This document shows, piece by piece, positions 32,335-52,203 of a stretch of DNA of 64,000 bases. Positions within the stretch are counted from its first letter, which is position 1. Each line of letters opens with the position of its first letter. Origin of the DNA: Brevinematales bacterium (GTDB lineage Bacteria > Spirochaetota > Brevinematia > Brevinematales > GWF1-51-8); the NCBI GenBank assembly GCA_013177895.1, contig JABLXV010000002.1, positions 1,285 to 65,284 of the forward strand, in the 5' to 3' direction. The translations under genes and the position numbers were made by a program. The notes beneath the pieces were generated by a model. The model searched no databases. It had not been told where the DNA came from and was given only the letters and a program-made list of their open reading frames with translations.

Positions 32335-33308
32335 GAGCAATAATCGCATGCGTGATTATGATAGGGGTGGCGGCTGGATGTTCCGGTAATGTCAAGCCGA
32401 TGGTCAAGACTAATGTACTGAAACGAATCACCGATAACCTCGCCATCGGGGTGGAGGAGTACGGCAAGGGCAACTATGAAAACGCACGGGGATTCCTCGA
32501 GGAAGCGCTGCAGCTCGCCTATTCGGTGGATAATATCGACGAGCAGATCAGCGCGATGGTCAATCTTGCCGAACTGCATATGGCGTTCAAGAACCTGACC
32601 GAAGCGTCGAATTACCTGTTCACCGCGGAAAACCTCTCGATCATCACGGAAAGTAAAAAATATCTCTTCCAGCTTCATATTTCCATAGGGAAATTCTGGA
32701 ACACGGTAGGACAGGTCGATAAAGCGATCGATTTCTACCAGCGCGCGCTGAACGATACGAAATCCGAGCTCCAGCAGGCGATAGTCTATAATAACCTCGG
32801 CATCATCTACCGTAAGAACGGCGATGACGAGAACGCGCTCAATACGCTCGAAATCGCGCAGAAGATCAATAAAATGTACGGTATCAGCGATAATCTCGCG
32901 GACAACTACTATAACATCGGGGAAATCTACCGCAAGCAGCAGAAATGGGACAGCGCGTTCCGGTACTACCAACTCGCGCTTGAGAACGATAAGCTGGTCG
33001 AGAACTCGGTCGGTATTATCGAAGACCTGATTAAGCTCGCGATGGTATCCTACGAGATGGACGAAACCGAGAGCACCGCTCTCTATCTCGACCGTGCGCT
33101 CAAAGTGGCACAGGGTATCAAGCACGAGAAGTACGCCGAGGCAATCGTAAAGCTGATGAAGAAGTACGCGCTGATTGAGGCGACTAAGTCGCTGATTTCC
33201 GATAAGCCCCTTGATAAGCCATTCAAGCCGGTGGATACCCAGCTTGATATTGTAACGGAAATCGACACGATTGAAAGCGAGACGAATCAGGCGGTCGGGA
33301 CAAATTAG
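32331..33308 (+). CDS. TPR-repeat lipoprotein
   Basis: MRAIIACVIMIGVAAGCSG (lipobox). Repeated TPR units (YNNLGIIYRKNGDDENAL, YYNIGEIYRKQQKWDSAF). 4-nt overlap with the mlaD-like stop. Confidence 0.7.
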   Translation: MRAIIACVIMIGVAAGCSGNVKPMVKTNVLKRITDNLAIGVEEYGKGNYENARGFLEEALQLAYSVDNIDEQISAMVNLAELHMAFKNLTEASNYLFTAENLSIITESKKYLFQLHISIGKFWNTVGQVDKAIDFYQRALNDTKSELQQAIVYNNLGIIYRKNGDDENALNTLEIAQKINKMYGISDNLADNYYNIGEIYRKQQKWDSAFRYYQLALENDKLVENSVGIIEDLIKLAMVSYEMDETESTALYLDRALKVAQGIKHEKYAEAIVKLMKKYALIEATKSLISDKPLDKPFKPVDTQLDIVTEIDTIESETNQAVGTN

Positions 33309-33382
33309 GGCGGATTTGTTCGATCAGCAACAAGAGTTAATTGCTCATGCTTCGACTGGCTCAGCATGACGAACATACCCGC

Positions 33383-33626
33383 TTTCATCACGGGCTATTT
33401 CTCAATACTTCTGCCCTCTCGACATCGGGGTTAGCCCTACGCAGTAGGCAGGGCTGCCTCTCCGCAACATTTCATCACGGGCTATCTCTCAAAACTTCTG
33501 CCCTCTCGACATCGGGGTTAGCCCTACGCTGTAGGCGGGGTTGCCTCTCCGCAACATTTCATCACGGGCTATCTCTCAAAACTTCTGCCCTCTCGACATC
33601 GGGGTTAGCCCTACGCAGTAGGCGGG
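33383..33626. repeat. 87-bp tandem repeat array (2.8 units), truncated by the transposon left end
   Basis: tttcatcacgggct begins at 33383, 33470 and 33557, a period of 87 bp. The third unit stops after 70 nt at 33626 and its sequence resumes at 52184 (gttgcc...). Confidence 0.9.
33622..33626. repeat. Target-site duplication, left copy (GCGGG)
   Basis: Identical to 52179-52183 and lies immediately outside both transposon termini. Confidence 0.85.
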
Positions 33627-33785
33627 TGACGAATCATAATAATGTTGTGCATTGACATGAATAGATATCAGTATATAAATGATATATTGTCATAGTTATA
33701 TGAAATAAAGTAGTGCATTGAGATATTTGGGGTACTAGGTTTGTTCGCTCTTTCGGAAAATCGTAATAAAAAAGTTGTGCACTGA
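33627..33785 (+). repeat. Transposon left (cargo-side) end with three dispersed TnsB-type binding repeats
   Basis: aataatgttgtgcattga (33637), aaataaagtagtgcattga (33704) and aaaaaagttgtgcactga (33768), spaced ~65 bp apart. Confidence 0.8.
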
Positions 33786-33929
33786 ATTATCTTCATCATT
33801 TCTATAAAAACGCTAATCGTATAATTGTATTCAGAATTAATCATACCGAATACCCGAAATTTTTCATTTTTCATCGACTTGTGGACAAATCTCAAAGGAG
33901 GTGTTAAAATATAGAAGTAATAAAAATGA

Positions 33930-34145
33930 TGTAATTCAGCGAGACATATTCTGCAATTCCTGCGAGGCCCTTATGTCATCAACATGGACGGGCTCCTTTT
34001 CGTCAAACAGCTTCAGTTCCGTCCGAACAATCCGATCATGATCATCAGCATCAACCCGAACTATCCTCCGATCGAGATCAAGAGCGAGGACGAAGACGGG
34101 TTCTTTATCGTTAGGCGGGTGATAGGGAAGTATAGGAGATACTGA
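33930..34145 (+). pseudogene. Remnant of an S24 (LexA/CI-like) peptidase, C-terminal fragment
   Basis: GC-richer patch that translates to ..VINMDGLLFVKQLQFRPNNPIMIISINPNYPPIEIKSEDEDGFFIVRRVIGKYRRY*. This matches the C-terminal beta-strands of S24 repressors (G..VKRL....L.S.NP.Y.P..I......I.G.V). There is no N-terminal half or start codon. Confidence 0.5.
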
Positions 34146-34167
34146 AAGTTTATGTATAGGAAAATCT

Positions 34168-34881
34168 ATGATATGTATCTTCCTTGATGAAACAAGCGAT
34201 TCAAAATATCGCGATTATTTCGGGATATCTCTTGTAATGATTAATTCATTCTTTTATCCATTTATAAAAGAGGAATTTCAAAAAATACTTTCCTCATCAG
34301 GTTGGGACTGTAGCATTGAATTCAAAGGATCATATCTTTTTTCGAGAACAAAAGGCGATCCCTCTATTGATATCGAAAAAAGAATTAGGATTTGTTCGGA
34401 TATTATTGCATTGAATATCTCAAAGAAAAATTCAAGATTCAACTGTTACTATTCTTCAAAAAGGGGTGTAACCGATCAGAAAAATGAATACTTAAAGATA
34501 GTAGCGCATCTTTTAAAAAAAGTATTACCAAAAGCGTCTTCTGCTGCGGGAAAAAATATTTTATCAGTTGTATTTGATGAAAGAAGTGATATAAAACCAA
34601 TAGATTTATATCATTCAATTATCTCAATAATTCATGAAAAAGGATACTCTCTTTTTGAAATGATGACAATGCAAAAATCAGGATTCGAGACCGTTGGGCT
34701 TCTTTATGCAGATATAATTGGATATCTTAATGCTCGCATTGAGGTTATTACAAATGATTTAGAATTATTTGAAGGCATACGAGAAGAGGATTTGGAAAAC
34801 AATGGTAAAATTCTTAAACTCCGCAGTTCTACTGATCTTATTGAACAAATTAAGAATTTGAAATGGATAAACACCAACTAA
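34168..34881 (+). CDS. DUF3800-family protein (237 aa)
   Basis: N-terminal ICIFLDETSD (family iyiDESG motif), internal VVFDERSD and C-proximal GLLYADIIGYLNAR (family lQlADl motif). AT-rich codon usage unlike the host. Confidence 0.6.
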   Translation: MICIFLDETSDSKYRDYFGISLVMINSFFYPFIKEEFQKILSSSGWDCSIEFKGSYLFSRTKGDPSIDIEKRIRICSDIIALNISKKNSRFNCYYSSKRGVTDQKNEYLKIVAHLLKKVLPKASSAAGKNILSVVFDERSDIKPIDLYHSIISIIHEKGYSLFEMMTMQKSGFETVGLLYADIIGYLNARIEVITNDLELFEGIREEDLENNGKILKLRSSTDLIEQIKNLKWINTN

Positions 34882-34903
34882 TTAGTGATGCAAGGAAAAT
34901 ACA

Positions 34904-35766
34904 GTGAAGAAAAAAATTAAAAAATATGAGTTTTCGCTTATATCTTACTTTGACGTTCTCGGATTTAAGACAATCATAGATACACATACTGCATCAGAGA
35001 TTGATGAAATTTTAGAAGGTTTTGAAAAAGTTAGCTTGGACGATTTTGAATTCTATAAGGAATTGAAAGGGAAAGGAGGTAAAGATCTTGCACAAGAATT
35101 CGGGCAGAAGTATTTGTTTTTTTCTGATACAATAATTAGACTTGTTAACATTTTATCGAATTCAAACAAGCAATATCCTATGGGATTATTTTTTTAGAAA
35201 TATTACATCTAATTCATGTTCAGGTTCAGATGTTGTATTACCATGGTATATTCTTACGAGGATCGTTGGTTTTAGGTGAAGCTTTTACCGATAGGACAAA
35301 GTTTTTTGGTCCCGGGATAGTTGAGGCATATAATAATGAGAAACTATCCCTTTATCCAAGAATAATAATTGAAGAAGATTTAATGAACATTGTATTGAAT
35401 GGATCTTCAAAAATATTCGATAATGAAAAATGTGGTATTCTTCAAAAACTTTTATTTAAACAAGGTCATGTAACAACAGAAGAACAAAAATATATAAAAG
35501 GTTTATTGATTAAAGATAAGGACGGGAGATATTTCGCTAATTATTTGTATGTTTATTTAGATGAACTTGAGCAAAGTCCTGATTATTTAGATCTTTTAAC
35601 GGTACATAAACAACTTATTGTTAAAAATCTTAAAATATTTAAAAATGAACGAGAAATACGAAAGAAGTATTTTTGGTTGAAAAGATATCATAATTCTGTA
35701 ATAAAAAGGATTCATGCAAAATACTTTCATCACTATTTAGTAAAGAAGAAAGATTATTACATCTAA
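34904..35766 (+). CDS. Nucleotidyl-cyclase-like (class III cyclase / palm-fold-like) protein, split by a -1 frameshift in a T7 tract
   Basis: ORF 34904-35197 has SYFDVLGFK and FFSDTIIRLV (two putative metal-binding Asp segments). The -1 frame, open from 35149, continues LEILHLIHVQVQMLYYHGIFLRGSLVLGEAF..FFGPGIVEAYNNEK, matching the R.G..G and G..vn.A..lE segments. The join is at ttattttttta (35186-35196). The fused product is ~287 aa. 22-nt gap after the DUF3800 gene. Confidence 0.5.
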
Positions 35767-35770
35767 CTAT

Positions 35771-35993
35771 TTGATGGTCGAGGACAGGATGGGCGTGAAA
35801 TCCACGGTTATTACCTCGCAACTCCCGGTTAAAAACTGGTTTGACGTAATCGGAGACCCTACAATCAACCGTTGCGATTTATGACAGGAGTGTCCACAAT
35901 GCTGTCAAGATCAAGCTGACAGGCGAGTCAATTCGGAAATTATTATCAAACAATTCTAACGATTCTGGAGGAAACCTACGGCCTGTTGTATAA
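35771..35993 (+). pseudogene. IS21-family IstB (AAA+ helper) C-terminal remnant
   Basis: Translates to ..VEDRMGVKSTVITSQLPVKNWFDVIGDPTI then, after a frame break, DRSVHNAVKIKLTGESIRKLL. This matches the IstB C-terminus (TSQ.PV..W...IGDPT.ADAILDRL.HNA..I.L.GES.RK). Confidence 0.65.
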
Positions 35994-36029
35994 TGTCATG
36001 GGAGTTATTTCTATTTGTTTTTGACGTAA

Positions 36030-36239
36030 ACTTTCACCCGGATTGGCCGACAGTTTTCACTGGGTTATGCAAACAGATCTTTTAAAAATAACCACCTAAG
36101 CAAAATAGCCGGGGTAAGCGGTACGTCGCTGGCAAAGATGGCAAATACTGACGCGCTTGTAAGGACTTGTACCGCGCTGGATTACACGCTTGACGATATT
36201 TCGGAAATTGTACCAAACAACGCTAAAAACAAAGATTAA
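36030..36239 (+). pseudogene. XRE/Cro-type HTH gene remnant lacking a start codon
   Basis: Frame open from 36030: ..HLSKIAGVSGTSLAKMANTDALVRTCTALDYTLDDISEIVPNNAKNKD*. This resembles small HTH regulators (..LsklaGvS..tlskl....l..l.kiC.aLdc...DI.E). There is no ATG, GTG or TTG upstream of the HTH. Confidence 0.4.
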
Positions 36240-36263
36240 CACTTCATTTTTGGGGTAAACAAA

Positions 36264-37241
36264 ATGGATTCAAACAAAGACAGTTCTAAGTACTCTGTGG
36301 TGTCATACTTCTGTGGATGCGGGGGGATGGACTTAGGTTTTCGCGGAAATTTCAAGTATCACGACGAGGAATACGGCGAGCTTCCTTTTTACATAACCGC
36401 AGCTTACGACAATAGCGCCGCTTGCGTGGAAACCTATAATCGCTATTTCGGAGCCGACCACGCTAAAAACGCTGATTTGTCTGCTAAAGAAGCAAAGGAC
36501 ATGATAGCGGCGGATTTGTTGATTGGGGGATTTCCATGTCAAGAGTTTTCCTCCTGCGGTCCCTTGGGCGGACTTGATTCAGAGCGTGGACAGCTTTACA
36601 AGTCGCTAATCAGATATATGGAAGTTCGTAAACCTAAAGTGGTCGTTGGTGAAAACGTTATAAATCTGGAGCGTATGGAAAAAGGAAAAGTCATGGAGAC
36701 CATCGTCAACGACCTCAGAGATACGGGGTACAAGGTTGAAGTATGGAGGCTGTACGCTCCCGATTATGGCATTCCCCAAAGGCGCACCAGGCTGTTTTTT
36801 ATTTGTGTGCGAAACGATATAAAAGGGTTCCCATCCAAGCCGGAGGCGAACTTCATTCACGCCCATCGTAGCATAGAGTGGGCTATTGGCGATTTGATGA
36901 ATGTGACAGACGATAGCGTCCCCAACCAAAGCCAGTATTTTGGGGCTTCCCGCGCCAAGAAAGGCAACGGGCAGGGTGACGAGAATAACCACAAGGACAA
37001 GCCGGCATATACAATCAGGGCAAACCCAAAGTCGAGAGTCCAGTTCCACTACGCGCTCGACCGACGCCTGACGGTCAGGGAATGCGCGAGGATCCAGACT
37101 TTCCCGGACAATTTCGTTTTTACCCACGCAGCCACGTCGAGTATATCGCAGATTGGCAACGCCGTACCACCGGTTCTAGCATACCGAGTGGCGTCTTGCA
37201 TAGCGGATTATTTGAATTCAATGAAAGATAAAGAGGTGTGA
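36264..37241 (+). CDS. dcm: DNA (cytosine-5)-methyltransferase
   Basis: Motif I YFCGCGGMDLGF, IV GGFPCQEFS, VI VVGENV, VIII QRRTRLFF, IX RLTVRECARIQTFPDNFVF and X GNAVPPVLA. Confidence 0.92.
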   Translation: MDSNKDSSKYSVVSYFCGCGGMDLGFRGNFKYHDEEYGELPFYITAAYDNSAACVETYNRYFGADHAKNADLSAKEAKDMIAADLLIGGFPCQEFSSCGPLGGLDSERGQLYKSLIRYMEVRKPKVVVGENVINLERMEKGKVMETIVNDLRDTGYKVEVWRLYAPDYGIPQRRTRLFFICVRNDIKGFPSKPEANFIHAHRSIEWAIGDLMNVTDDSVPNQSQYFGASRAKKGNGQGDENNHKDKPAYTIRANPKSRVQFHYALDRRLTVRECARIQTFPDNFVFTHAATSSISQIGNAVPPVLAYRVASCIADYLNSMKDKEV

Positions 37242-37245
37242 GAAA

Positions 37246-39612
37246 ATGGATACAACTATCACTTCTGTTGATATTACCCCGAAGCCTCGAATCCTACGGA
37301 CATTGGGTGATATCCCGTTCCAACCCTGGCAATGCCTCGCGGAGTTGATTGACAACTCAATAGATGCCTTTCTCGCGGTCGAGGCGGACGCCGAGGAAGG
37401 GAAAGAACAGAAAATATTGGTCAACTGGTCAAACGACTCAGTCGGTACTCCCGACCGCACGATTGAGGTGTCCGACAACGCGAATGGAATGAGTTTAGAG
37501 CAATTGCAAAACGCTGTAACCGCTGGATACAGCGGTAACGACCCCATAAACAACTTAGGGCTTTTCGGAATGGGCTTTAATATAGCGACCGCCCGCCTTG
37601 GGGAGGTTACGACGGTTCGCTCCACACGCGCGGGTGATAAGGAATGGATCGAGCTTACAATTGATTTTGCCGAGCTTATAAGGGCGAAGCGTTTCCTCGC
37701 ACCTGTGAAAACTCTCCCCAAGGAAAATCCTGCTGAGTCTGGTTCAAAAATCATCATCTCGCGATTAAAAACCGGAATCGCCGACACTATGAACCAGAAA
37801 GAGGCGGATATCAGGAAGCAGTTAGAATCTATATACACCCCTCTTCTGACCACAAAGGATATTGTCCTTTTGGTTAAAGGGAGGCAGTTATCACCACGCA
37901 ACCACTGCGTTTGGTCGGACGCCAGATATGTGGTACACAGGCAAACGAATGTACCCGCCAGAATCCCGATTGATCGGGAACTCGGACACCCTTTGTTCGA
38001 CACCGAGCGAAACCGTTACCTTACAGACGATGAGGCAGAACCGTATTACGCCGCTCAGTCGAGAGGCGAGGCGCTACCCGAAAACATCGTGGAACGAAGC
38101 AAACGCCTTACTGGGTGGCTTGGTATCCAACGATATGCCGATCCGAATGATTATGGCATTGATTTTATACGTAATGGCCGCAAAATCCTAATATCGGATA
38201 AAACCCTCTTCTATTATGAAAGCCCAATCACCGGTCAAAAGGACATTCAGTATCCACTTGATCTTGGTACTACCATCGGCGGCCGAATCGTCGGCGAACT
38301 GCACGTGGATTATCTCCTGCCGACATATCAAAAAAACGACTTCGACAGAAACGATGCATCGTGGTATCAGACAGTTGAGGCAATTTGCGGTGTCGGCCCA
38401 TTTCGAGCGCAGGCGCGAAAAGCGTTAGGCTTACCAGAAGCCCCCACTTCTCCGCTGGGCATTCTGGCAACTGCTTATACACGAACCGATCCCGGAACCA
38501 GGTGTCTATTTGCACCCAATGAGATCGCCAAACAATTTGCCGCACAGTTTAGAAGTGGCAAGCGCGAGTATATCGACGACGGCCTGTGGTGGAAAGCTGC
38601 CCAGGAAGAGGATCAGAAGAGAAACACAGGCGGATCGAGGTCTACTACCGCTGTCAACCAAGGGGAGGTACCTTCCGACGACCCCGGAGAATATCTCGGA
38701 CAAAGCGCTAGTACACCGCTTCCCGGGGGTGTGGCAGTAGTGCCTCCTCCTACGGCCCCAACCATAACGCCGTCAGATGTAGTGACATCCACGCTAGATG
38801 AATTGATTCTCCTCTCAAATCAGGTGGTTCAACTCTCAGGCAAATATAATTTCGGCGTATCCCCGCTAAACGTCCGTGCCTATGAGCTTAAAGAGGGGAC
38901 TATCCTTGAGAGAGGCGAGCGGAAGCCTTGTTTCTTCCACTCAGATGGACCCGATTGCAGTTTCGTGTATGACCCCTTACACCCTCTGTTAGCGCAGTAT
39001 CCGATTACGTCCAAAGAACTGTTGCTCCAATATCTCGCCGAAAAGCTTAAAGTGCGAGATCGTAAAACTGATTTGGTGGAGGTGTTCTCCACCCTTGTTC
39101 AGAACACCATGCCTGAGGCGAAAATTGATCGTCAGTCTTTACAGGACAGGGCGACAAAAGCGTTTGCCCTCCTACGGGAAAAGATGGTTGAAGCCCTCCG
39201 TCCTTGCGCCGTGGACGTACTTAGGTGTATACATGAGTCCACAGGCGACGTGGAAGACACGGTAAACAGGATGCTGTCCAATCCCACTCTGATTAGGAGC
39301 TTGCAGGGTTGTGAGGAGGCGGGGTACGAGGCGATAGAGTATGTGCCCGAGAAGACTTTACTGCGACTGGTAGACAGATTCCCAGAGCTTGTTTTCGACG
39401 GTAAAGTGGTGACCGCGCCATACACAAGTATCAGCCTTTCAGACGAGAAAGCAACTGAGCGCAGCCGCAACGAGTCTAAGGAACGGGTTATTTCCTTCCT
39501 TAAAGACACACTTAGAGTTATGACAAACACAAGTTTCGGGCAAAATGACCTAAAAAATGAGTTGTCCCGTGCCTCGCTGAGTATAGATTTTTTATTAGGG
39601 GAGTTGGTGTGA
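37246..39612 (+). CDS. GHKL-superfamily (MORC/MutL-like, HATPase_c_3-type) ATPase, 788 aa
   Basis: Bergerat-fold boxes: CLAELIDNSIDAF (N-box), VSDNANGMS (G1) and NLGLFGMGFNIATARLG (G2). Starts 4 nt after the dcm stop. Confidence 0.8.
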   Translation: MDTTITSVDITPKPRILRTLGDIPFQPWQCLAELIDNSIDAFLAVEADAEEGKEQKILVNWSNDSVGTPDRTIEVSDNANGMSLEQLQNAVTAGYSGNDPINNLGLFGMGFNIATARLGEVTTVRSTRAGDKEWIELTIDFAELIRAKRFLAPVKTLPKENPAESGSKIIISRLKTGIADTMNQKEADIRKQLESIYTPLLTTKDIVLLVKGRQLSPRNHCVWSDARYVVHRQTNVPARIPIDRELGHPLFDTERNRYLTDDEAEPYYAAQSRGEALPENIVERSKRLTGWLGIQRYADPNDYGIDFIRNGRKILISDKTLFYYESPITGQKDIQYPLDLGTTIGGRIVGELHVDYLLPTYQKNDFDRNDASWYQTVEAICGVGPFRAQARKALGLPEAPTSPLGILATAYTRTDPGTRCLFAPNEIAKQFAAQFRSGKREYIDDGLWWKAAQEEDQKRNTGGSRSTTAVNQGEVPSDDPGEYLGQSASTPLPGGVAVVPPPTAPTITPSDVVTSTLDELILLSNQVVQLSGKYNFGVSPLNVRAYELKEGTILERGERKPCFFHSDGPDCSFVYDPLHPLLAQYPITSKELLLQYLAEKLKVRDRKTDLVEVFSTLVQNTMPEAKIDRQSLQDRATKAFALLREKMVEALRPCAVDVLRCIHESTGDVEDTVNRMLSNPTLIRSLQGCEEAGYEAIEYVPEKTLLRLVDRFPELVFDGKVVTAPYTSISLSDEKATERSRNESKERVISFLKDTLRVMTNTSFGQNDLKNELSRASLSIDFLLGELV

Positions 39613-41270
39613 TGACTTTTTATACGCACGACATTTCCCAGGGGAACAACTGGAAGGGTCTTGTGCGTGCCGTGGCGAGGGTGATGTCACATATAGGGTG
39701 GAAGGACACCGCCGTGATTGATGGCTCCGGCGATATGGGTGCGGACGTTCTGGCGACACAAGCTGATGGTGATAGAATACGTTCTTGGGTCGTTCAGTCC
39801 AAAGCCGTGTCCGGCGACCGCTACATAGGGCCGAACGCAATGCAGGAGGCGATAAACGCCCTGTCATTTTACGGTACAGAAATAGCTGCCGTAGCCACAA
39901 ACGGTGAGTTTACGCAGACCGCCAAGACAAGGCAGAAGCAACTTGAGGCAAACGGATATACACTAAAGCTTTGGAACGGGGCTTTCATAAAAAAGCTCAT
40001 CGAACAGATGCCCGCGGATAGTGTGGCTCTTCGGGAGCTTCGTCCGTATCAGGAAAGCATTATCAAGAAAGTCGTAGAGGTATATGACTCAGGCGGTAAA
40101 AAGGCTTTTTACATTGTCGCCACTGGTCTTGGAAAGACGGTGATCGCTGCCACCATTACGCGGCAATTATGGGAACGCGGATGTCGAAGGATTCTCGTCC
40201 TCTGCCACCAGACCGATTTGGCACAGCAGCTTGAGCAAGGCTTTTGGTCGCAGCTTACAAAGGAAGTCCCCACATCAGTCTTCTTCGACGGTATACCGCC
40301 AAAGGATACAGAGGGCGTGTCATTCGGCCTATATCAAAGCCTGTACGGTTATCTACCTGGTATTGAGGAAGACCGATTTGATGTCGTTATCGTCGACGAG
40401 GCGCATCACGCCTTGGCATATGGATTCAGGGCTTGCCTTGAGCATTTGAGGCCAAGGTTTTTAATTGGGATGACCGCCACCCCATGGCGAGGCGACGGGC
40501 AGAACCTAAACACCGTATTTGGGGAACCGCTAGCGAAAGTTTCTCTCGTGGACGGCATGGCGATGGGTTTTCTGTCTAAGGTGGATTACCGTATCCTCTG
40601 CGACAACGTTGACTGGGACGGTATGCAATCCATCAGCAAGAAGAAACTTTCCATCAAGGATTTGAACAAACGCCTATTCTTACCTCAACGCGACGAGGCG
40701 GTTATCACGGAAATACAAAATGTTGTAAAGACTGTTCCAAACCCGAGAATCGCCATATTTTCACCGTCAATTGAGCACAGCAACCGTTTCGCGGCTATGC
40801 TCTCCGCCGCAGGGATACCAACCGCCTCACTATCCACCTCGGACAAGGCGGAGCGCCGAAAGCGGCTATTAAGCTTCTCCGCCGGGAACTACAGCACGGT
40901 AACTGCGGTGGACGTAATGAACGAGGGAATTGATATCCCCGATGTTAACATCCTTGTGTTCCTGCGAGCCACGCACTCCAGGCGCATTTTCGTACAACAG
41001 CTTGGGCGCGGACTCCGACTCGCGGATGGCAAAGATAAAGTCATCGTTTTGGACTTTGTATCCGACATTCGGCGGATGGCCGAGATGGTCGAGATGAATA
41101 ATGAGGGCAAAGCCAAAGGTCGTGAAAAGGAAGTGCTGTTTTTGAAACAAGGTTTTGTTTCCTTCTCCGACGCGAAGGTGGAGCGTTTTGTAAATGTTTG
41201 GATTGAGGACGTGGCTGACCTCAGCGGTTCTGACGACGAGGTCAAGCTGACGTTTCCGGAGGGGTTCTAA
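39612..41270 (+). CDS. Mrr-like restriction endonuclease domain fused to an SF2 (DEAH) helicase
   Basis: N-terminus GSGDMGADVLAT...WVVQSKAV...AAVATNGEFT (Mrr_cat PD-(D/E)xK pattern). Helicase motifs ATGLGKT (I), VIVDEAHH (II), MTATPWR (III) and QQLGRGLR (VI). The ATG overlaps the upstream TGA (TGATG). Confidence 0.85.
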   Translation: MTFYTHDISQGNNWKGLVRAVARVMSHIGWKDTAVIDGSGDMGADVLATQADGDRIRSWVVQSKAVSGDRYIGPNAMQEAINALSFYGTEIAAVATNGEFTQTAKTRQKQLEANGYTLKLWNGAFIKKLIEQMPADSVALRELRPYQESIIKKVVEVYDSGGKKAFYIVATGLGKTVIAATITRQLWERGCRRILVLCHQTDLAQQLEQGFWSQLTKEVPTSVFFDGIPPKDTEGVSFGLYQSLYGYLPGIEEDRFDVVIVDEAHHALAYGFRACLEHLRPRFLIGMTATPWRGDGQNLNTVFGEPLAKVSLVDGMAMGFLSKVDYRILCDNVDWDGMQSISKKKLSIKDLNKRLFLPQRDEAVITEIQNVVKTVPNPRIAIFSPSIEHSNRFAAMLSAAGIPTASLSTSDKAERRKRLLSFSAGNYSTVTAVDVMNEGIDIPDVNILVFLRATHSRRIFVQQLGRGLRLADGKDKVIVLDFVSDIRRMAEMVEMNNEGKAKGREKEVLFLKQGFVSFSDAKVERFVNVWIEDVADLSGSDDEVKLTFPEGF

Positions 41271-41840
41271 ATGGCTAATTCTTTACCAAAGGATGTCGCG
41301 GCACAAGTGAAGAAGGCTGTTTTCAAGAAAGCCGACGAGTATTGTTATGCCAAGCGTGGGCGTGTGGAAAACGGCCGCTTTATAGATGAGTTGATGGACG
41401 ACCCGGAAATCGGCGGTGTCATCAAGGAGTATCGTAAAGCTGGCAGAGTCAGAACTTACATTAAGGATGGGGTACTAAACACCTACACCAAGCAAATGAC
41501 AAGGCTTATTCTACGCGCCGCCAACCCGATACAGATTATCTGCCGTACCTACAACGAAGAACAAGTGTTTGTTCTTTCACGAGATGATATTGTTGTATGC
41601 CTTTCGTCAAATGAGCGTATCTACGTTATTGGCAGAGGTACGGTGCTAAAATGGGAAACCGCGCTTAGGAAAGCACTTGAGTACATCGCTCGCACACCGG
41701 GAGTACGAACGGACGGCCGCTACCCCGCCATCTGCCTGCAACTTGCGGTTATAAACGATGATATTACAGAGGGCGATAAAAGACAAATCACAAACGCGCT
41801 CGCAGCCGTGGGTGTGAAAGTTTTTTTCTGTTCGGCTTAA
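41271..41840 (+). CDS. Hypothetical protein (189 aa), fourth gene of the operon
   Basis: The ATG immediately follows the helicase TAA. No motif recognised. Confidence 0.6.
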   Translation: MANSLPKDVAAQVKKAVFKKADEYCYAKRGRVENGRFIDELMDDPEIGGVIKEYRKAGRVRTYIKDGVLNTYTKQMTRLILRAANPIQIICRTYNEEQVFVLSRDDIVVCLSSNERIYVIGRGTVLKWETALRKALEYIARTPGVRTDGRYPAICLQLAVINDDITEGDKRQITNALAAVGVKVFFCSA

Positions 41841-41858
41841 CTTTTAGGGGATGAATCT

Positions 41859-42290
41859 GTGGTGAGGACACCTGAAGTTACACATAAAATCATGTCGGCG
41901 ATCAAGCAGAAGAACACAAAACCTGAAATACTCCTGCGAAAGGCGCTATGGCGCAAAGGGCTTCGTTATCGTGTTAACGTCACAAAACTACCCGGTAGAC
42001 CAGACGTAGTCTTCACGAAAGCCAGAATCACTGTATTCTGTGACGGTGATTTTTGGCATGGACACAACTGGGCTATTCGAGGCATTCCCTCCCTTGAGGA
42101 TGAGCTTGCGGGTTACTCCGAGTTTTGGAGGAATAAAATTCTCGGCAACATCAAGCGAGACAAGGAAACCACGGAAAAACTCATACGGGATGGCTGGCTC
42201 GTGCTGAGATTTTGGGAAAGCGATATCATCGCTGACGCCGATAAATGTGCCGATTCAGTGGTGGAAAAGTGGCGTGAGCGGCGCAACTGA
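41859..42290 (+). CDS. vsr: Very-short-patch repair endonuclease
   Basis: IMSAIKQKNTKPEILLRKALWRKGLRYR, GRPDVVF and FCDGDFWHGH are Vsr hallmark blocks. GTG start. Confidence 0.9.
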   Translation: MVRTPEVTHKIMSAIKQKNTKPEILLRKALWRKGLRYRVNVTKLPGRPDVVFTKARITVFCDGDFWHGHNWAIRGIPSLEDELAGYSEFWRNKILGNIKRDKETTEKLIRDGWLVLRFWESDIIADADKCADSVVEKWRERRN

Positions 42291-42450
42291 AAGGTAGAAT
42301 TTAGTCTATTGAGTTATTAGAACCGAAACACAAGGACGCTATTATTGACGCTTTCGAAAAAGCTAAGCGACATCTGCCCATTCTTTCAAGTGCATTTTTC
42401 TCCATTAACCTGCCAGTATTTTACTATGATATCTGACATCCATACTATTC

Positions 42451-42732
42451 TTAAAGCCTTCTACCTAGCGGACCAGGCCCCGGCAGTTTACCTGTAGCGA
42501 TACCATCATCCTCTACTAATCTTATAGTATCAGCCTTAAAAAAATCTTGTTTTATTTCTTTACCTTCAAACCATTTACAAAAACAATCTCCTTCCTTCAT
42601 ACCTCTCATTTTAGCCTGATTTCCAATTGCAATGCTAGCGGGATTATTATCCGAAGCCCCAATTACCATTTCAACTGTCATTTTAGGCCCACCACTATTC
42701 AACTGAACTACATCACCCACTTTGAAACTCAT
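42451..42732 (-). CDS. DUF2158 (YodC-like) small protein
   Basis: MSFKVGDVVQLNSGGPKMTV...CKWF matches the conserved DUF2158 N-terminus. Confidence 0.65.
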   Translation of the reverse strand: MSFKVGDVVQLNSGGPKMTVEMVIGASDNNPASIAIGNQAKMRGMKEGDCFCKWFEGKEIKQDFFKADTIRLVEDDGIATGKLPGPGPLGRRL

Positions 42733-42761
42733 AATATCCTCCTATAAAACAGCATTCGTAT

Positions 42762-43187
42762 TTACTCGATTACATGTTCCATTAATGCAATCAAACCATC
42801 ATCACTTGAAACATCTATTTGCATTTCAAGGTATCGATTCTTTGGAATTGTAAACTTTGGAAATTGTCTTAGAATTGCATCTGCAACTTTGTTATTAATT
42901 TTAATCCCATGACTCCCATCGTGAGGTGTTCCATCCAAATTCATGGAAAAAATTAAATTATTTCCATCATAAGTATGAAGGTGATATTGTCCCTTTGAAG
43001 TATGAGGAGGGTGTTTTATTACTGAATAGCTTCCTCCAAGCGGAATTCCTGGATGTTTAGCTTCCATCAAAGATCGTAATTCTTTTGGGAATGAGATACT
43101 AATATTAAAACCACCAATCTTCATTTCAATAATTTCCAAATCTTCATGTCCATAAAACCTTGTTTCTTTATAATAGTATTTAATCAT
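42762..43187 (-). CDS. Hypothetical protein (141 aa), His-rich core
   Basis: HPPHTSKGQYHLHTYDGNN..DGTPHDGSHGIKINNKVADAILRQ. No confident family. There is only a weak resemblance to HicA-type KGSH...H..k.i....IL.Q. 30-nt gap to the DUF2158 gene. Confidence 0.5.
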   Translation of the reverse strand: MIKYYYKETRFYGHEDLEIIEMKIGGFNISISFPKELRSLMEAKHPGIPLGGSYSVIKHPPHTSKGQYHLHTYDGNNLIFSMNLDGTPHDGSHGIKINNKVADAILRQFPKFTIPKNRYLEMQIDVSSDDGLIALMEHVIE

Positions 43188-43286
43188 GCAATATAACTCC
43201 TTTTTTTATATACCTAAATATAAAAAAAAGTTTATCACTCTAAGAACCGCTTCCCGCTTCTAAGGTATATTAAAACAGAAAATCTT

Positions 43287-43982
43287 TTAAAAATCATCCC
43301 AATATACCTCACAAGCCAAGTAGTCTCTAATAATCATTCTAACTCTTAATCCGTTATTACAACTGAACAAGTAACTATAATTCCCGGACTGAACGTTTAT
43401 CCATGAATAATTCAAATTATTAGCCGCCCATCTAAACAAAGACCTGCTTCCCACTTCCGGTAATAAACTTTGAAATGAAAAACTATCCGGTTGTTCGAAC
43501 TCTTTCAATGCTTCTTCCGACATCTCGATAATCGGTATCATTAATACCCGAGTCGGATCGGTTAAAGGACACTCGCTATTCTCATGCATTATATGGCCTT
43601 TCGCCAATTTAATAATAATATTTTTAAATCTTTCTATTTCTATTGAAAAATATGTATCGCTACCTTTCTTAATTATTTGTTCATCAATTCTCTTTCTTAA
43701 TAATGGGGTTTCCGATAGAATGCGCTTTACTTTATCTCTTTTAAGTATATTTGGATCTGTGGTTCCTGCAAGAGCGCATTCAATCACACAAGCCATATAT
43801 GCTTCATCATCTGAAAATCCCTCATTACATCGTTTACAAGCGGGAACGACCGGTAAATTTTCGGGATATGGTTCGTCCAGAAAAACCCGTGGGGGAACGT
43901 GTTCGCGCGTATCGGCGGCATCCCCACAATAAACGCAAAAGTATTTTAATCTCCCGTTGGATTGAGGTACTATCTGTTCCAT
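43287..43982 (-). CDS. HNH endonuclease-domain protein with an uncharacterised C-terminal domain
   Basis: CVYCGDAADTREHVPPRVF....VVPACKRCNEGFS (HNH_5-like C..C...EH..P...C..CN). ATG 43982 has AAGGA upstream. The track starts at TTG 43997. Confidence 0.75.
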   Translation of the reverse strand: MEQIVPQSNGRLKYFCVYCGDAADTREHVPPRVFLDEPYPENLPVVPACKRCNEGFSDDEAYMACVIECALAGTTDPNILKRDKVKRILSETPLLRKRIDEQIIKKGSDTYFSIEIERFKNIIIKLAKGHIMHENSECPLTDPTRVLMIPIIEMSEEALKEFEQPDSFSFQSLLPEVGSRSLFRWAANNLNYSWINVQSGNYSYLFSCNNGLRVRMIIRDYLACEVYWDDF

Positions 43983-44285
43983 AGAATTATCCTTCAATTC
44001 ATTTTAACTTCATGCAAACCGACAACCGAAAAAGATGTAACAATACTATTATAGAGACGTCTCGAAAAAAGCAACTTTACACCGAAGATGTTGAAAAAAT
44101 CGTTCCAGAAAGTGTGAGATTCGCTTTTTTCGTCTTTCCATTAGCGTGAAAAAACGATAGCTTTTTTATTTCGTTCTTGGATATTAGTAAAACAACTCTA
44201 ATGTATAGAATTAAATTATTCGTATATTTTATCATAAAGTATATTTTAACAATTTTACAAAGAAAGTCAATAATATTCATTATAG

Positions 44286-45893
44286 TTAATAAATTAGCTT
44301 CTTTATTAGCCTCTCCGCCCACGCCTCGACGGTTTGTCCGGTAACATGCCGAAGCAACAGGTATTCGAACTCGCGGTTTTGTCTCAATCGGTAGATGTTC
44401 CAATGAAACGAGTTCTTTACGACTATCGATAAATGCTTATCTACGCTCTCATACCGGTCTGCATAACCCCATGAAGGTATCACAATCAAAGTCGATGACG
44501 AAGAGTATTCGAGGCGATTGAACTCGAAAATGAAACGTGAACCGATGCTTCCGCTGGAGATATGGACTATAGCGCACACTCTATCCCGTTCGATTATACT
44601 TGATGTTTCGCAATTCCTGAATGTGACTTGAACATTCCAATCCCAATTCTTATCCTGAAGAATATCTAATGCTTTCTTGAAATCGGAAAAACCTTCGGGA
44701 AAAGTAGCGGTATCGATCAATGGTACAAACTCTGCCGAGCGTATAGATCCACCCGGGAAACGGGTGCGTGTAGAGACTGTGTCGTCATTCCGGTTTGTTT
44801 TTTCTGACGGTTGTCGGAAGTTATCTCCGGTGTCGCAGGATTCCCCTTTATGACGGATTTGAGTTTTACTTCGAACTTTGACAACTTTCGGTTTATTAAC
44901 AAAACGAAATAGTGTATTGGGATTTGATATTCTTCTAGGTTCGGCTCCTTTATCGGCGGCTTTGACCGTTTCATCCAGGACAAATGCAGGAATATCGCCA
45001 GTGTCTTCGGTTTCGCCCCTAGGAGTTACAGGCTTTCTATCGGTTTCCACACTAATGAATTTGGGCGAATGGCAGACGATTCGAGAGTATGGTGCTATTA
45101 TCCCCCTTCGTTCAAGGATTTCCAGAACAAGGATGCGGTTGTAGAGTTTCAACCCTCTGCATCTCCAATGTTCTCGCGTCGATAAAGGGGGATACGCTTC
45201 GAGCGGGATACCTTCTTTGAATCCGCGTTCAAATTGTCCGGGAAAGTCGATCATAGCCCGATCAAACATTCGAAGGTAAACCGAATCCCATTCGGTAGAG
45301 GCTTTTTTATCGAAGTTTAGCCATACGAAATACGAGATGATGTCCTCTTTCAGCAGGGCTTCCGGATATTCACCGGTTAATTCTATTTCGATACCGAAAT
45401 CGTGTTCGATGTACGATCCGAGCAGATTATCCATACCCCGTGGTTCGAATAGACGGTTCAATAAAGCAGAATACGGTGCTATAATCGATCTGAGAATCTC
45501 AGTGCACGGGAGGTAAATGATCGTACCGGAGATCATAAACCTGCACAGGAGTTGGTACCCATACCTGATTGTCTCCCAAAACGGGTACAACGGGCGCGGA
45601 ATGTCGAAGCCCTTGCACAAAGAAAAACGGGTGGATGGAGAAATCTGGATGGAATACTCTCTTCCGGTCGCGTCCTCGTTCCGGATGGTACCGTTAACAT
45701 ATTTCCTGCCGGGTATCAATGAGGGCAAAGTTCCCCAAGGAAATACTTCTTCCTTGTAACTCCCATTCGGGCGTCGAAATATCGCCGGGATCATCCATTG
45801 CCCCGGGGATTCTTTGTACGGAGCACCCAGCCAATACAGTTCGACGTTTTCGTTTTCGGAAAATCTCCACGGGCGAAGCGTAAGTTCAGTCAT
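44286..45893 (-). CDS. Uncharacterised 535-aa protein in the TnsE position of the tns operon
   Basis: Starts 5 nt after the tniQ stop and is co-oriented with it. Its size is close to Tn7 TnsE (538 aa). No motif recognised by eye. Confidence 0.6.
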   Translation of the reverse strand: MTELTLRPWRFSENENVELYWLGAPYKESPGQWMIPAIFRRPNGSYKEEVFPWGTLPSLIPGRKYVNGTIRNEDATGREYSIQISPSTRFSLCKGFDIPRPLYPFWETIRYGYQLLCRFMISGTIIYLPCTEILRSIIAPYSALLNRLFEPRGMDNLLGSYIEHDFGIEIELTGEYPEALLKEDIISYFVWLNFDKKASTEWDSVYLRMFDRAMIDFPGQFERGFKEGIPLEAYPPLSTREHWRCRGLKLYNRILVLEILERRGIIAPYSRIVCHSPKFISVETDRKPVTPRGETEDTGDIPAFVLDETVKAADKGAEPRRISNPNTLFRFVNKPKVVKVRSKTQIRHKGESCDTGDNFRQPSEKTNRNDDTVSTRTRFPGGSIRSAEFVPLIDTATFPEGFSDFKKALDILQDKNWDWNVQVTFRNCETSSIIERDRVCAIVHISSGSIGSRFIFEFNRLEYSSSSTLIVIPSWGYADRYESVDKHLSIVVKNSFHWNIYRLRQNREFEYLLLRHVTGQTVEAWAERLIKKLIY

Positions 45894-45898
45894 ATATC

Positions 45899-47473
45899 CT
45901 ACCCGGCTTTTATTTTTCGATCATTTATATATCGATTTGTTTCTTTACGGATAGCGTTTTTCACTTTTAACGCATACGATTGTGTTAATCCCGCAAGCCG
46001 CTCGATTCTCCACCGGTCGATGGGTTTGCCTTGACGTACCAATTCACGTGAGCTCCATTCTACTCGCCTTACTTGGAAATCCTCAACGCTTTCCGAAACT
46101 CCTTTCAAATACCCGACCGATATCGGGAGCTTGTCGGGATGTTTTTCCAGACATGTAAGCCAACCGATTCTCTTCCCGACGGAAGTGAGGGAAATCCTGA
46201 TAGGTTTTCCCCCTTTTCCGCGCATTTCCTTGACGACGGCCTTTACCTTTTCTAAAATAATTCTATCTCTTTTCTTCCAATCGACAGTCCCGGAAAAGTT
46301 ATGGGTGGAATATCTCGGCGAATTCGTCTTCAGCCATGCATAATCGTAACGGAAAAGTTTCGTATGCAAGGGGAAGTCGAATTTCTTTAATTGTGTTCTC
46401 GACATCCCCGGATGTGTCTCGATGAGATTTCGCCATTCGCTCCTGCAACGTTCGATATCGACCGTATCGGGTTTTTCCCAAGATCGGCGGCTTTTTACGA
46501 ATAACTTCTCAGGGGGCATTCGTTTCGCATCGTCAATGAAGTTGGCAGGGATTCCACAAAAAAACCGCATCAACAATAGATGCCTGAGAGGGTGTAGCGT
46601 TTTCGTTAGATTCTTAATGATGTACATCGGCCACAGATAAGCCTCGTCGCAAAGATAATTCGATTGAAGTTTTTCAAGCGTTTCCGATCCGTAGAAATCA
46701 TGCAACTCCCGGATAAATTCACCCCAACGGTGTCCGTCGATATTGACCGGCGAGAATTTAATCTTTAGAAAACGACGGTAGGTTTTCTTCAAGCCCCCAT
46801 CAGCATAGGAAATCTCCCGAACTTTTTCGTAATTATCGTACAACCATTCGATATCGTCGGCGACTTCGCACAGTTTGTCCGTAACTCCGTCGATTTTCGG
46901 CGGAACGCGATTCGGCGAGATCGGGCAGGTATCGGCGTCTGCCGCAATGAAATCCTGTTTGTGCATTTCGTGAATTTCAATCGGGCTTTCTTCCAGAAAG
47001 ACTTTATGCCTACTGCACACGAGCACACCTGGTGTGTTGTGGAGCCGGTGCCAATAGAATTCGCCGTATCGTTCGAAGTCATCCCGGCAGCATTCCGGGC
47101 AATATTTTAGCATCGGAAAGACATGAATCGTACTTGCTGTAATGCCCAATTTGATGTGGATATTTCCACCGAAAGGTTTTCTCATAGTTTTGTAGGCGTC
47201 TCTCGCTTCGTTTTGGGGCAAAAAGGCCGTGTAGTATGGGTAAAGGGTATGATCGCGGATTATGTCTCTAACGGATAAAGAAACAAACGATGGTAATACG
47301 CTCGCGAGCGCGTCTATATGGCAAGGCATGTCGAAAACTGAGGAAAAAGTCTTTTTCCCGAGAAGCTCCTTCATCGTAGCACTAAAACTCGTGTTCCCGC
47401 TCCTCACATGGTATCTTGAAAGAACACCGTACAACAGCTCGTCTGGATAAGGAAGAGGAAAGAACACTGGCAT
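45899..47473 (-). CDS. tniQ: TniQ/TnsD-family target-selection protein
   Basis: N-terminus MPVFFPLPYPDELLYGVLSRYHVRSGNTS (TniQ signature). CPECC zinc-finger motif. 524 aa, so a long TnsD-like form. Confidence 0.85.
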   Translation of the reverse strand: MPVFFPLPYPDELLYGVLSRYHVRSGNTSFSATMKELLGKKTFSSVFDMPCHIDALASVLPSFVSLSVRDIIRDHTLYPYYTAFLPQNEARDAYKTMRKPFGGNIHIKLGITASTIHVFPMLKYCPECCRDDFERYGEFYWHRLHNTPGVLVCSRHKVFLEESPIEIHEMHKQDFIAADADTCPISPNRVPPKIDGVTDKLCEVADDIEWLYDNYEKVREISYADGGLKKTYRRFLKIKFSPVNIDGHRWGEFIRELHDFYGSETLEKLQSNYLCDEAYLWPMYIIKNLTKTLHPLRHLLLMRFFCGIPANFIDDAKRMPPEKLFVKSRRSWEKPDTVDIERCRSEWRNLIETHPGMSRTQLKKFDFPLHTKLFRYDYAWLKTNSPRYSTHNFSGTVDWKKRDRIILEKVKAVVKEMRGKGGKPIRISLTSVGKRIGWLTCLEKHPDKLPISVGYLKGVSESVEDFQVRRVEWSSRELVRQGKPIDRWRIERLAGLTQSYALKVKNAIRKETNRYINDRKIKAG

Positions 47474-47476
47474 AAT

Positions 47477-49003
47477 CTATCCCGCCTCGATGAATTCCCT
47501 ATGGATGTCTTTTATGAATCCTGCTTTTTCAAGAGACGAAAAAACTGAAGAACCCGTCCTCTTTCCTTCCGCCGCTACTTGTTTCAACGTATCCGTTACC
47601 GAATAACAGTTGCCCATGATTATCCCCTGCCCGGATGAAGGATCGAATTGTTGCGGTAATATTGTATCTATCGATGAAGATGCGCTTGATTTTCGCTTGT
47701 GCATATTTGTTACCGGATTCAGCATAGAAGCAATTTGTCGATCGCGGAATTGGTCGTAATGGAGGGGGAGGAGGTCTTCGAACATCCCGATCTTTTTCTC
47801 ATCTTTAGATTTTAGAGCATCCAACATCGGTTTCAGGAGCAGTAAGCCTTCCGTAGCTGCTTGGTTGACGATATCGACCGTTATTGTTTCTTTTCCGGTT
47901 GCTATTGCTTTGAATTGCGTCATGGCAAACAGCTTCACCGCAACATCAACGATGCCCTGGCTGTGTTCGAAGAACAAGCGGCTTATTTCGGGTGTCAGCG
48001 GCACCTTTTTTTTAGTCCACTGATGTTTCCATAAACCGTTCATAAGAACCTGCCACCAAATCTCGTTTTCCTTAAGATTTTCCCAGAAAACCGGCCCCTG
48101 TTGGCCGCCGCTACGTCTCGCTTCCCTGAATTCTCCCCGAAGAATCGGAAGTGCTTTATTTGTCCCAATTAAAAGAATTGGAACGCCAATTCTATTTGCC
48201 AACGATACGAAGAAATCCAGCATCTTACCCGAACCTCCGCTTTTTGCTGAGCTTATGTTTTGGATTTCATCGATTACCAATAAGCCGAGGTGATTCCGGC
48301 GAGCCAAGATGGTCATTTGGGGTATCATTACTTCGGTGGTCGTCTGACTGTGGGATGCGAAATCCTTGTGGGTACGTGCTCCCAAGAGCCTGTCATATTC
48401 TATAAAGAAGGAAGTACAGAGGCTTTTAATACTTCCGTTGTGAGGACAATCGAGCTTCATCCAAACGATCTGGAAATCGTTAAAAACCGAGTTCACCTTC
48501 ATTTCGTGTAGGATCACTTGGGGATACCATGACAGGATTTTCTCGACCGTCGTCGTTTTTCCAACGCCGGAATACCCGATTATCGCGAAACCCGAGGCGG
48601 GTACTGTAACCGGACGTACTTTGGATAATGATGAGTCTTTGTCGTCGATCGCTTTACGGATTTCATGGAGAGCTGTGACATTGGCAGGGCTTGCGGGATT
48701 TCTGGAAAGATAACCCCGACGGATAGCTCTCGATATTTTACTTTCAATTTCGAAATGTTTATCCATCGGTTGAAAGAAATCGTACAGGCGGTCAATGATA
48801 TGGAATCTTAAATGCGCATCGAGAAACCTTTCAGAATCCTTATATATAGGGAAGTGTTGGAGTTTAGCCTCGACTTCTACCGGCGACATAATAGGCGGAA
48901 GCGCCTTGATGAGCAGGTTATCGTTATACTCCGGCAACCCTTGGTCGATATATTCCGCTTTCTTTGCGAAAACAGAATCCTTTGAAAAATACTCGTTACT
49001 CAT
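47477..49003 (-). CDS. tnsC: TnsC-like AAA+ transposition regulator
   Basis: Walker A GYSGVGKTTTV and Walker B LGLLVIDEIQN. Positioned between tnsB and tniQ. Confidence 0.85.
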   Translation of the reverse strand: MSNEYFSKDSVFAKKAEYIDQGLPEYNDNLLIKALPPIMSPVEVEAKLQHFPIYKDSERFLDAHLRFHIIDRLYDFFQPMDKHFEIESKISRAIRRGYLSRNPASPANVTALHEIRKAIDDKDSSLSKVRPVTVPASGFAIIGYSGVGKTTTVEKILSWYPQVILHEMKVNSVFNDFQIVWMKLDCPHNGSIKSLCTSFFIEYDRLLGARTHKDFASHSQTTTEVMIPQMTILARRNHLGLLVIDEIQNISSAKSGGSGKMLDFFVSLANRIGVPILLIGTNKALPILRGEFREARRSGGQQGPVFWENLKENEIWWQVLMNGLWKHQWTKKKVPLTPEISRLFFEHSQGIVDVAVKLFAMTQFKAIATGKETITVDIVNQAATEGLLLLKPMLDALKSKDEKKIGMFEDLLPLHYDQFRDRQIASMLNPVTNMHKRKSSASSSIDTILPQQFDPSSGQGIIMGNCYSVTDTLKQVAAEGKRTGSSVFSSLEKAGFIKDIHREFIEAG

Positions 49004-52018: not shown

Positions 52019-52110
52019 TTCCTAAACCTTCCTTTTTTTGTTAAAGAAAGATCACATGTTGGGCAAACCGTTAAAAAAGAACCGTCAATACCAATATCGG
52101 AATATATTTT

Positions 52111-52183: not shown

Positions 52184-52203
52184 GTTGCCCCTTCCTTGGG
52201 GCG

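Follow-up and report, generated by a model that had tools for sequence, protein, structure and literature searches.

Proteins with the DUF3800 domain have been described as RNase H2-like, with an N-terminal D-E and a C-terminal QxxD motif, and they have been linked to type VII retrons, to Cas12a2/a3 (as TPR-DUF3800), to a Cas13-associated kinase (CASK) operon (as Csx32) and furthermore to eleven RNA motifs. A second group of conflict-associated proteins uses palm-type domains to handle nucleotides. In mCpol/Panoptes a minimal Cas10-palm cyclase with a GGDD-like hairpin is combined with a membrane (two-transmembrane, 2TM) or CARF effector, and in Pycsar the cyclase PycC is combined with a TIR or transmembrane (TM) effector. 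AdvA of Acinetobacter baumannii is a protein with a cyclase-like fold without catalytic sites which controls cell division. A standalone cyclase-like defence protein was not found described in the literature. Here we analyse a stretch of 64,000 nucleotides (the window) of contig JABLXV010000002.1 from a Brevinematales bacterium, in which two adjacent genes, gene 1 and gene 2, lie within the cargo of a Tn7-like transposon at 34168-35766. An earlier note made from the sequence alone had proposed that the two constitute a defence pair, in which a nucleotidyl-cyclase-like protein acts as sensor and a DUF3800 protein as effector; we consider it likely instead that they are two independent single-gene modules, each acquired horizontally. 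The features of the cassette are as follows.

34168-34881, plus strand: gene 1, an intact open reading frame (ORF) of 237 aa.
34904-35197, plus strand: gene 2, N-terminal part, 97 aa, with FDVLGF (D17) and FSD (S74, D75) of the cyclase-like palm domain.
35189-35195, plus strand: seven consecutive T leading into a TAG stop, the site at which the frame of gene 2 is shifted.
35196-35766, plus strand: gene 2, C-terminal part, in the -1 frame (listed ORF 35230-35766, 178 aa).
33984-34145, plus strand: C-terminal remnant of an S24 (LexA/CI-type) peptidase gene (Pfam Peptidase_S24 positions 74-106 of 116, E=1.3e-4).
Approximately 35771-35993, plus strand: C-terminal remnant of an IS21-type IstB gene with a frameshift of its own (Pfam IstB_IS21 positions 179-232 of 238, E=7.8e-10).

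Gene 1 and gene 2 are co-oriented and separated by a spacer of 22 nt (34882-34903), and gene 2 starts with a GTG codon at 34904 which has AAGGA in front of it. The GC content is 0.27-0.31 across 34200-35800 as compared to approximately 0.50 in the flanks, and it is much alike in the two genes, 0.30 in gene 1 and 0.29 in gene 2. The layout described in the earlier note is thereby confirmed, the AT-rich and co-oriented gene pair with its 22-nt gap by the ORF coordinates and the GC profile, and the S24 fragment upstream and the IstB fragment downstream by Pfam profile matches. The motifs quoted there (ICIFLDETSD, GLLYADIIGY, FDVLGF, FSD, RGSLVLG and GPGIVEAYNNE) can likewise all be read in the window. 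Judged by their homologs, at least 50 for gene 1 and thousands for gene 2, both ORFs are real genes.

The proposed pairing was examined from both sides, using 18 genome loci (with flanks of up to 6 kb on both sides, depending on the contig) and 80 metagenome loci for gene 1, of which 41 metagenome loci have at least 900 nt of downstream sequence, and 23 loci from metagenomes, plasmids and viral contigs for gene 2. An ORF of the gene 2 family was found in none of the 98 gene 1 loci and an ORF of the gene 1 family in none of the 23 gene 2 loci, even at E<=10, and no recurrent partner of the gene 2 family emerged among the best 25 of 61 families in a Pfam scan of 64 flanking proteins. A two-gene system is therefore not supported, and this lack of co-occurrence is precisely the outcome that the earlier note had named as speaking against its pair. 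In such a system the cyclase-like gene 2 would sense infection and its nucleotide signal would activate the DUF3800 nuclease effector, a notion in agreement with the tight spacing, the common strand and the equal AT-richness, with the cyclase fold of gene 2 with both its metal aspartates and the nuclease-like character of gene 1, and with the site in Tn7 cargo beside a restriction-like module. It is nonetheless hardly probable, since the members of each family occur on their own or beside neighbours that vary, since the structural model of gene 1 contains no obvious additional ligand-binding domain, since neither protein has a match among the PADLOC models, those of PycC and CBASS included, and since the Asn/Arg pair of cyclases is absent from gene 2, which is furthermore frameshifted here.

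It seems likely, rather, that gene 1 and gene 2 are independent, horizontally acquired single-gene modules that happen to lie side by side in Tn7-like cargo, where they would have accreted among the debris of earlier insertions represented by the S24 and IstB remnants. Some points do however weigh against this. The shared low GC, strand and short spacer, together with the fact that the AT-rich block ends exactly at the outer borders of the pair, would fit the acquisition of one operon from a single donor, but the shared composition is weak evidence, because in a comparison of 20 loci the gene 1 homolog proved richer in AT than its host in 18. Furthermore, the closest homolog of gene 2 is 35% identical and is located on a contig of 1.2 kb, with a different gene 3 nt upstream, so that a rare subclade of gene 2 proteins paired with DUF3800 is conceivable, and DUF3800 proteins of very distant relationship would escape the gene 1 profile (A3). 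It should also be mentioned that our estimates for independent modules, for the pair and for the two further explanations weighed below, a link of gene 1 to restriction and a role of the gene 2 family outside defence, overlap and are not shares of one total, and that the latter two are compatible with independent modules.

The gene 1 protein corresponds to protein HPY53_00760 of the metagenome-assembled genome at 100% identity, and at least 50 homologs at approximately 50% identity are spread across many phyla. The protein itself has no match to DUF3800 (PF12686) at E<=10; among 50 close homologs, 17 match this family (best E=4.8e-6) and one is named DUF3800 by NCBI. Direct scans of the gene 1 and gene 2 proteins against Pfam and NCBIfam gave no model match, as was the case with PADLOC, and a match to Act-Frag_cataly in the direct scans of window proteins was dismissed as chance. 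An AlphaFold2 (AF2) model of gene 1, built on the alignment of homologs, has a predicted local distance difference test (pLDDT) score of 90, and its top Foldseek matches are RNase HII and HIII (1eke, E=3.6e-4, template modelling (TM) score 0.51). D7, E8 and D137 do not vary among the homologs and D182, in LLYADIIGY, hardly does, and the conservation of these four residues indicates an RNase H-type carboxylate set (D-E-D-D). With regard to the DUF3800 motifs, the N-terminal D-E is present and the C-terminal QxxD occurs with Y in place of Q. According to the model, gene 1 is thus a divergent DUF3800 protein with a predicted RNase HII-like fold and D7, E8, D137 and D182 as candidate catalytic residues, and its earlier assignment to DUF3800 is borne out by the PF12686 matches of the homologs together with this fold.

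A solved structural relative of the gene 1 family was not found by sequence-profile search of PDB chain sequences, and tblastn of gene 1 against sequenced phages and plasmids gave no match. Likewise, no Rfam family, including a DUF3800-associated RNA, was detected at 33000-36500 (E<=5) or in 13 gene 1 loci (gathering score), and no common non-coding element was apparent when the regions upstream of gene 1 homologs were compared all against all by BLASTN. It was previously stated that no experimentally assigned function is known for DUF3800, and this agrees with our literature search, in which no published tested biochemical function was found. Gene 1 would most likely act as a metal-dependent nuclease on the nucleic acid of invading elements and do so with no fixed partner.

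The neighbours of gene 1 homologs vary across the 98 loci, and the commonest neighbouring family, an N6/N4 DNA methylase, was found in only 7 of 98 loci by BLAST clustering. At nine loci (L021, L022, L023, L026, L046, L051, L064, L076 and L085) the gene 1 homolog lies 0-31 nt upstream of such a methylase, which is followed by a ResIII helicase wherever the downstream sequence suffices. This is the sole recurrent arrangement of gene 1 homologs, and it looks like a recurrent three-gene restriction cassette of a type III-like kind. Approximately one in eight gene 1 homologs immediately precedes a methylase and helicase of this type. The cargo neighbouring the cassette in the window likewise contains a methylase.

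36264-37241, plus strand: C5 DNA methylase (PF00145), by Pfam.
37246-39612, plus strand: HATPase_c_3 protein of 788 aa, by Pfam.
39609-41270, plus strand: Mrr_cat-ResIII-Helicase_C protein, by Pfam.

It could accordingly be imagined that gene 1 functions with this C5 methylase, HATPase and Mrr-helicase, and that gene 2 and the IstB remnant were inserted later. The nine methylase loci point in this direction, as does the fact that the next intact genes downstream in the window encode a DNA methylase and a ResIII helicase-nuclease. We nevertheless regard this as quite improbable, since the window methylase belongs to another class (C5 rather than N6/N4), since the GC content of gene 1 matches that of gene 2 and not the 0.45-0.53 of the genes at 36264-41270, and since most gene 1 loci have no methylase nearby. 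The restriction-like module, which extends over 36264-41840, also contains an ORF of 189 aa without a Pfam match.

Turning from gene 1 to the second of the two independent modules, gene 2 is read as two ORFs in the window, and the profile of its family (A2) matches both of these, the N-terminal one with E=1.1e-20 and the C-terminal one with E=1e-53. One added T at 35189-35195, or a -1 slip there, yields a protein of 287 aa. Full-length homologs of 256-289 aa align without gaps over the junction, GLFFLEILHLIH versus GILFCELLHLIH, and the bridged reading of 287 aa is therefore ancestral, which supports the repair suggested previously. The site at 35186-35197 reads TTA TTT TTT TAG, such that a -1 slip results in the same protein as the added T. 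Programmed -1 frameshifting at T TTT TTT followed by TAG was considered and set aside as unsupported, because ten aligned homologs read through this region as single ORFs. An exact-pattern scan of metagenome contigs for T7 or T8 versions of the site revealed no second copy. Gene 2, which is otherwise most likely an enzyme, is thus either inactivated by the frameshift here or broken only in the assembly.

The AF2 model of the 287-aa protein (pLDDT 82, predicted TM score (pTM) 0.81) consists of a beta-alpha-beta-beta-alpha-beta core followed by a helical domain. All of the top 50 Foldseek matches in the PDB are class III adenylyl or guanylyl cyclase domains, matched with E values of 1e-4 to 1e-3 over approximately 165 residues and with target TM scores that are mostly 0.4-0.64 (isolated cyclase domains). 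In a viral structure library the model matches cyclase and GGDEF proteins, the latter only at E>=0.036, and the family profile furthermore matches mycobacterial adenylate cyclases with E=0.006. In the profile alignment D17 corresponds to the metal-binding Asp of FADIVGF, R119-G120 to the LRxG strand and E146 to the Glu of RMES. Eight residues, D17, S74, D75, R119, G120, E146, P152 and R153, are invariant in 112 family members; the last five are found in the C-terminal part of gene 2 within RG (R119, G120), GPGIVEAYNNE (E146) and YPRII (P152, R153). D75 is located at the turn between model strands 68-73 and 76-82, a position that suggests it to be the second metal Asp of cyclases. The helical C-terminal domain of approximately 120 aa is conserved as well (K255, W258 and N264).

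The similarity to cyclases does not extend to all of the active site. The positions of the transition-state Asn and Arg are variable columns in the gene 2 family, in the region of which A142, Y143 and E146 are conserved instead. The residues that specify the base in cyclases are Lys/Asp for ATP and Glu/Cys for GTP; at the corresponding site of the gene 2 family, four residues ahead of D75, there is no conservation, and gene 2 itself has L71 there. In addition, the gene 2 protein has no match to PF00211 at E<=10, and just one of the 112 family members matches it (E=4e-4). Since neither the Asn/Arg pair nor the base-specifying residues are conserved, it is not established that the gene 2 family synthesizes cyclic nucleotides. 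The earlier reading of gene 2 as a palm protein of the class III cyclase type consequently holds for the fold and for the motifs in their predicted order, as seen from Foldseek and profile comparisons of the repaired protein, which did not point to a non-cyclase fold, but it does not hold for the synthesis of cyclic nucleotides. According to the model, the class III cyclase fold is kept and the two-metal chemistry probably so.

Three family members, P0062 (475 aa), P0185 (531 aa) and P0192 (509 aa), consist of the whole module duplicated in tandem. Of the two copies in P0062, only the second has retained the FSD and RG motifs, which is reminiscent of the C1/C2 pseudo-heterodimers of class III cyclases, and a tandem duplication with one degenerate copy argues for a dimeric enzyme. 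We thus envisage gene 2 as a frameshift-broken copy belonging to a large unnamed family of proteins of approximately 270 aa, in which a cyclase-like palm is joined to a helical C-terminal domain. The palm would probably form a head-to-tail dimer in which D17 and D75 hold two metal ions for attack on the alpha-phosphate of a nucleoside triphosphate (NTP). In place of the Asn/Arg pair and base-specifying residues of true cyclases the family has the invariant R119, E146, P152 and R153. When repaired, gene 2 would accordingly most likely be a dimeric enzyme of the nucleotidyl-transfer or cyclase type, as judged from the model.

The family is widespread. A word-indexed search returned only 11 relatives of gene 2, and a full profile search returned 15,015 clusters at E<=1e-3, of which 9,971 remain at E<=1e-10 and 2,987 at E<=1e-30; most clusters are of 250-300 aa and cover the whole profile, and the family is spread across phyla. 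No Pfam or PADLOC model exists for the family, the gene 2 protein has no NCBIfam match, and the database names that were examined are all 'hypothetical protein'. Two PHROG families are matched overall, one of which, phrog_23933 (annotated in PHROG as of unknown function), is matched by all 112 members. Members are found on 84 plasmids, each annotated as hypothetical protein, and on 15 IMG/VR contigs, whereas no match was obtained when 50,697 sequenced phage records were searched with gene 2 by tblastn. Intact members under this annotation are present, for example, on Bacillus cereus plasmid NZ_CP053657.2 (37424-38176), on pW2_73_1 of Agrobacterium rubi and on pRtrCIAT899a of Rhizobium tropici. 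The settings are plasmids, lysogeny modules of prophages and defence islands, where the family occurs as standalone genes, and the neighbours include HTH repressors, phage integrases, a CI repressor, tail genes and IS elements as well as VapBC, AbiEii, a KAP NTPase, a Schlafen/AlbA_2 ATPase and restriction genes.

Members extended at the N- or C-terminus contain no fused domain that is informative by Pfam, except for P0005 (463 aa; locus L001, 7361-9392), which has a weak nitroreductase-like N-terminal extension. This gene follows a thymidylate-kinase-like gene in an island with an Eco57I-type restriction gene, an ImmA/IrrE peptidase, MazG_C and HMUDK_hel. Another relative, P0003 (locus L007, 839-3228), has its last base in common with the start of a gene for a Schlafen-like SLFN_AlbA_2/HATPase_c_4 protein of 506 aa, and the two may form an operon in that lineage.

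The context points to an anti-phage or exclusion role of gene 1 and gene 2, but the gene 2 family could also serve its mobile elements in ways other than defence, for instance by manipulating nucleotide signalling of the host, by providing decoy or competing nucleotides in counter-defence or by maintaining the plasmid or prophage, and the cyclase-like fold may also have a structural role without catalysis. The two PHROG families, the 15 IMG/VR contigs and the 84 plasmids are compatible with this notion, and AdvA sets a precedent for a cyclase-like fold without cyclase activity, the Asn/Arg pair being missing in the gene 2 family also. However, the eight invariant residues, including both metal aspartates, in 112 members argue for an enzyme, and the prophage copies are found near integrase and repressor genes, where exclusion genes expressed by lysogens usually sit. 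Chromosomal copies lie beside the KAP NTPase, Schlafen-like ATPase and restriction genes, and the tblastn search of sequenced phages was without a match. A role outside defence is thus rather unlikely. It may tentatively be suggested that plasmids, prophages and transposons have in the gene 2 family a conflict system, so far undescribed, which consists of a single protein and acts alone, although we would not put this higher than a possibility worth pursuing. If this is true, a non-canonical palm (D, SD, RG, E and PR) with a fused helical domain might make an unusual nucleotide product, or might deplete or transfer nucleotides, and thereby block phages or competing elements.

The two independent modules are carried by an intact Tn7-like element of 18.6 kb (33627-52178), the main parts of which are the following.

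33622-33626: left copy of the target-site duplication, GCGGG, by direct reading of the sequence; the right copy is at 52179-52183.
33627-33790: left (cargo-distal) transposon end, with TnsB-site-like repeats at approximately 33640-33660, 33705-33725 and 33766-33787.
44286-45893, minus strand: ORF of 535 aa directly after TnsD/TniQ, without a Pfam match.
45899-47473, minus strand: TnsD/TniQ (Pfam TnsD and TniQ).
47477-49003, minus strand: TnsC (Pfam AAA_22/TniB).
48996-51167, minus strand: TnsB (Pfam Mu-transpos_C).
51164-52018, minus strand: TnsA (Pfam Tn7_TnsA-like_N and C).
52100-52178: right (TnsA-proximal) transposon end, with three tandem TnsB-site-like repeats (direct repeat D12, inverted repeats I3 and I10).

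The element has the features of a Tn7-like transposon, that is tnsA, tnsB, tnsC and tnsD-tniQ genes, inverted repeated sites of the TnsB type and a target-site duplication of 5 bp. The left terminus TGACGAATCAT corresponds to TGTGGAATCAT at the right end, and a repeat of 22 nt (ATTCAGGGCACAACTTTTTTAT and variants) has three copies near 52100-52170 and three more, in inverted orientation, near 33640-33790, with the inverted repeats I3 and I10 pairing 33766-33787 with 52128-52169 at 94-95%. Since the termini map to 33627 and 52178, the cassette is located approximately 540 bp inside the cargo-distal end, and the Tn7-like cargo location proposed for it is borne out by the Tns genes, the inverted ends and the GCGGG duplication.

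The TnsA-proximal end is found 25 nt past the stop codon (52204) of a purU-type gene, the domains of which are recognized by Pfam, and this proximity suggests a purU-directed attachment site, by analogy with glmS for Tn7. For the 535-aa protein, a function in target selection, as a second selector of the transposon, is conceivable. Beyond it lies an ORF of 236 aa (43287-43997, minus strand) without a Pfam match. Three tandem repeats of 87 nt are present at 33383-33643, between a TPR-protein gene and purU, and the element is inserted in the third of these, the repeat resuming past the right end at 52179-52210 (GCGGGGTTGCC...); no Rfam family matches the 87-nt repeat. The sole tRNA gene of the window, tRNA-Gly(CCC) at 55001-55073, lies approximately 2.8 kb past the right end of the transposon.

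Taken together, gene 1 adds a member to a known, uncharacterised domain family, and gene 2 stands for a variant of the class III cyclase fold that is widespread, has no name and bears an active-site signature of its own. That the pair is unsupported means that a cloning effort on the wrong unit can be avoided. Further attention is best directed to the gene 2 family, even though the window copy is broken, and if intact members protect from phage or make a new nucleotide, the family would be a single-gene addition to nucleotide-based immunity. The cassettes of DUF3800, methylase and helicase, for their part, provide a concrete setting for learning the role of DUF3800 nucleases.

Among described DUF3800 systems, the type VII retrons, the TPR-DUF3800 proteins at Cas12a2/a3 and Csx32 of CASK loci share with gene 1 the D-E motif, the x-A-D motif and the RNase H2-like fold, and like gene 1 they are associated with defence loci. 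The gene 1 subfamily differs in that it consists of a short standalone protein without reverse transcriptase (RT), TPR or CRISPR neighbours. With regard to gene 2, Pycsar likewise relies on a class III cyclase-like enzyme found on mobile elements and in defence islands, and two of the 112 gene 2-family members match PycC weakly (E=4e-4 and 0.0098). Gene 2 itself has however no PycC match at E<=10, its active-site residues are others, and its family has no conserved effector neighbour in the 23 loci. The likeness to mCpol/Panoptes lies in a small palm-domain enzyme that uses nucleotides in a conflict context, but the hairpin of gene 2 reads FSD and not GGDD, there is no adjacent effector gene, and no Cas10 or mCpol structure is found among the top 50 PDB matches of gene 2, a comparison that draws on general descriptions of Panoptes.

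The class III cyclases proper (PF00211; Rv1625c, CyaC and soluble guanylate cyclase) are closest in structure, since the fold is the same over the first approximately 165 residues of gene 2 and the motifs come in the same order, F-x-D-I-x-G-F, the hairpin Asp, R-x-G...G and G...A-x-x-x-E. The gene 2 family differs from these by its own invariant residues S74, R119, P152 and R153, by the extra helical C-terminal domain and by its occurrence as standalone genes of mobile elements. AdvA, finally, resembles the gene 2 family in having a cyclase homology fold at very low identity to true cyclases, but the gene 2 family stands apart from AdvA in that both metal aspartates are invariant and in that it is carried by mobile elements.

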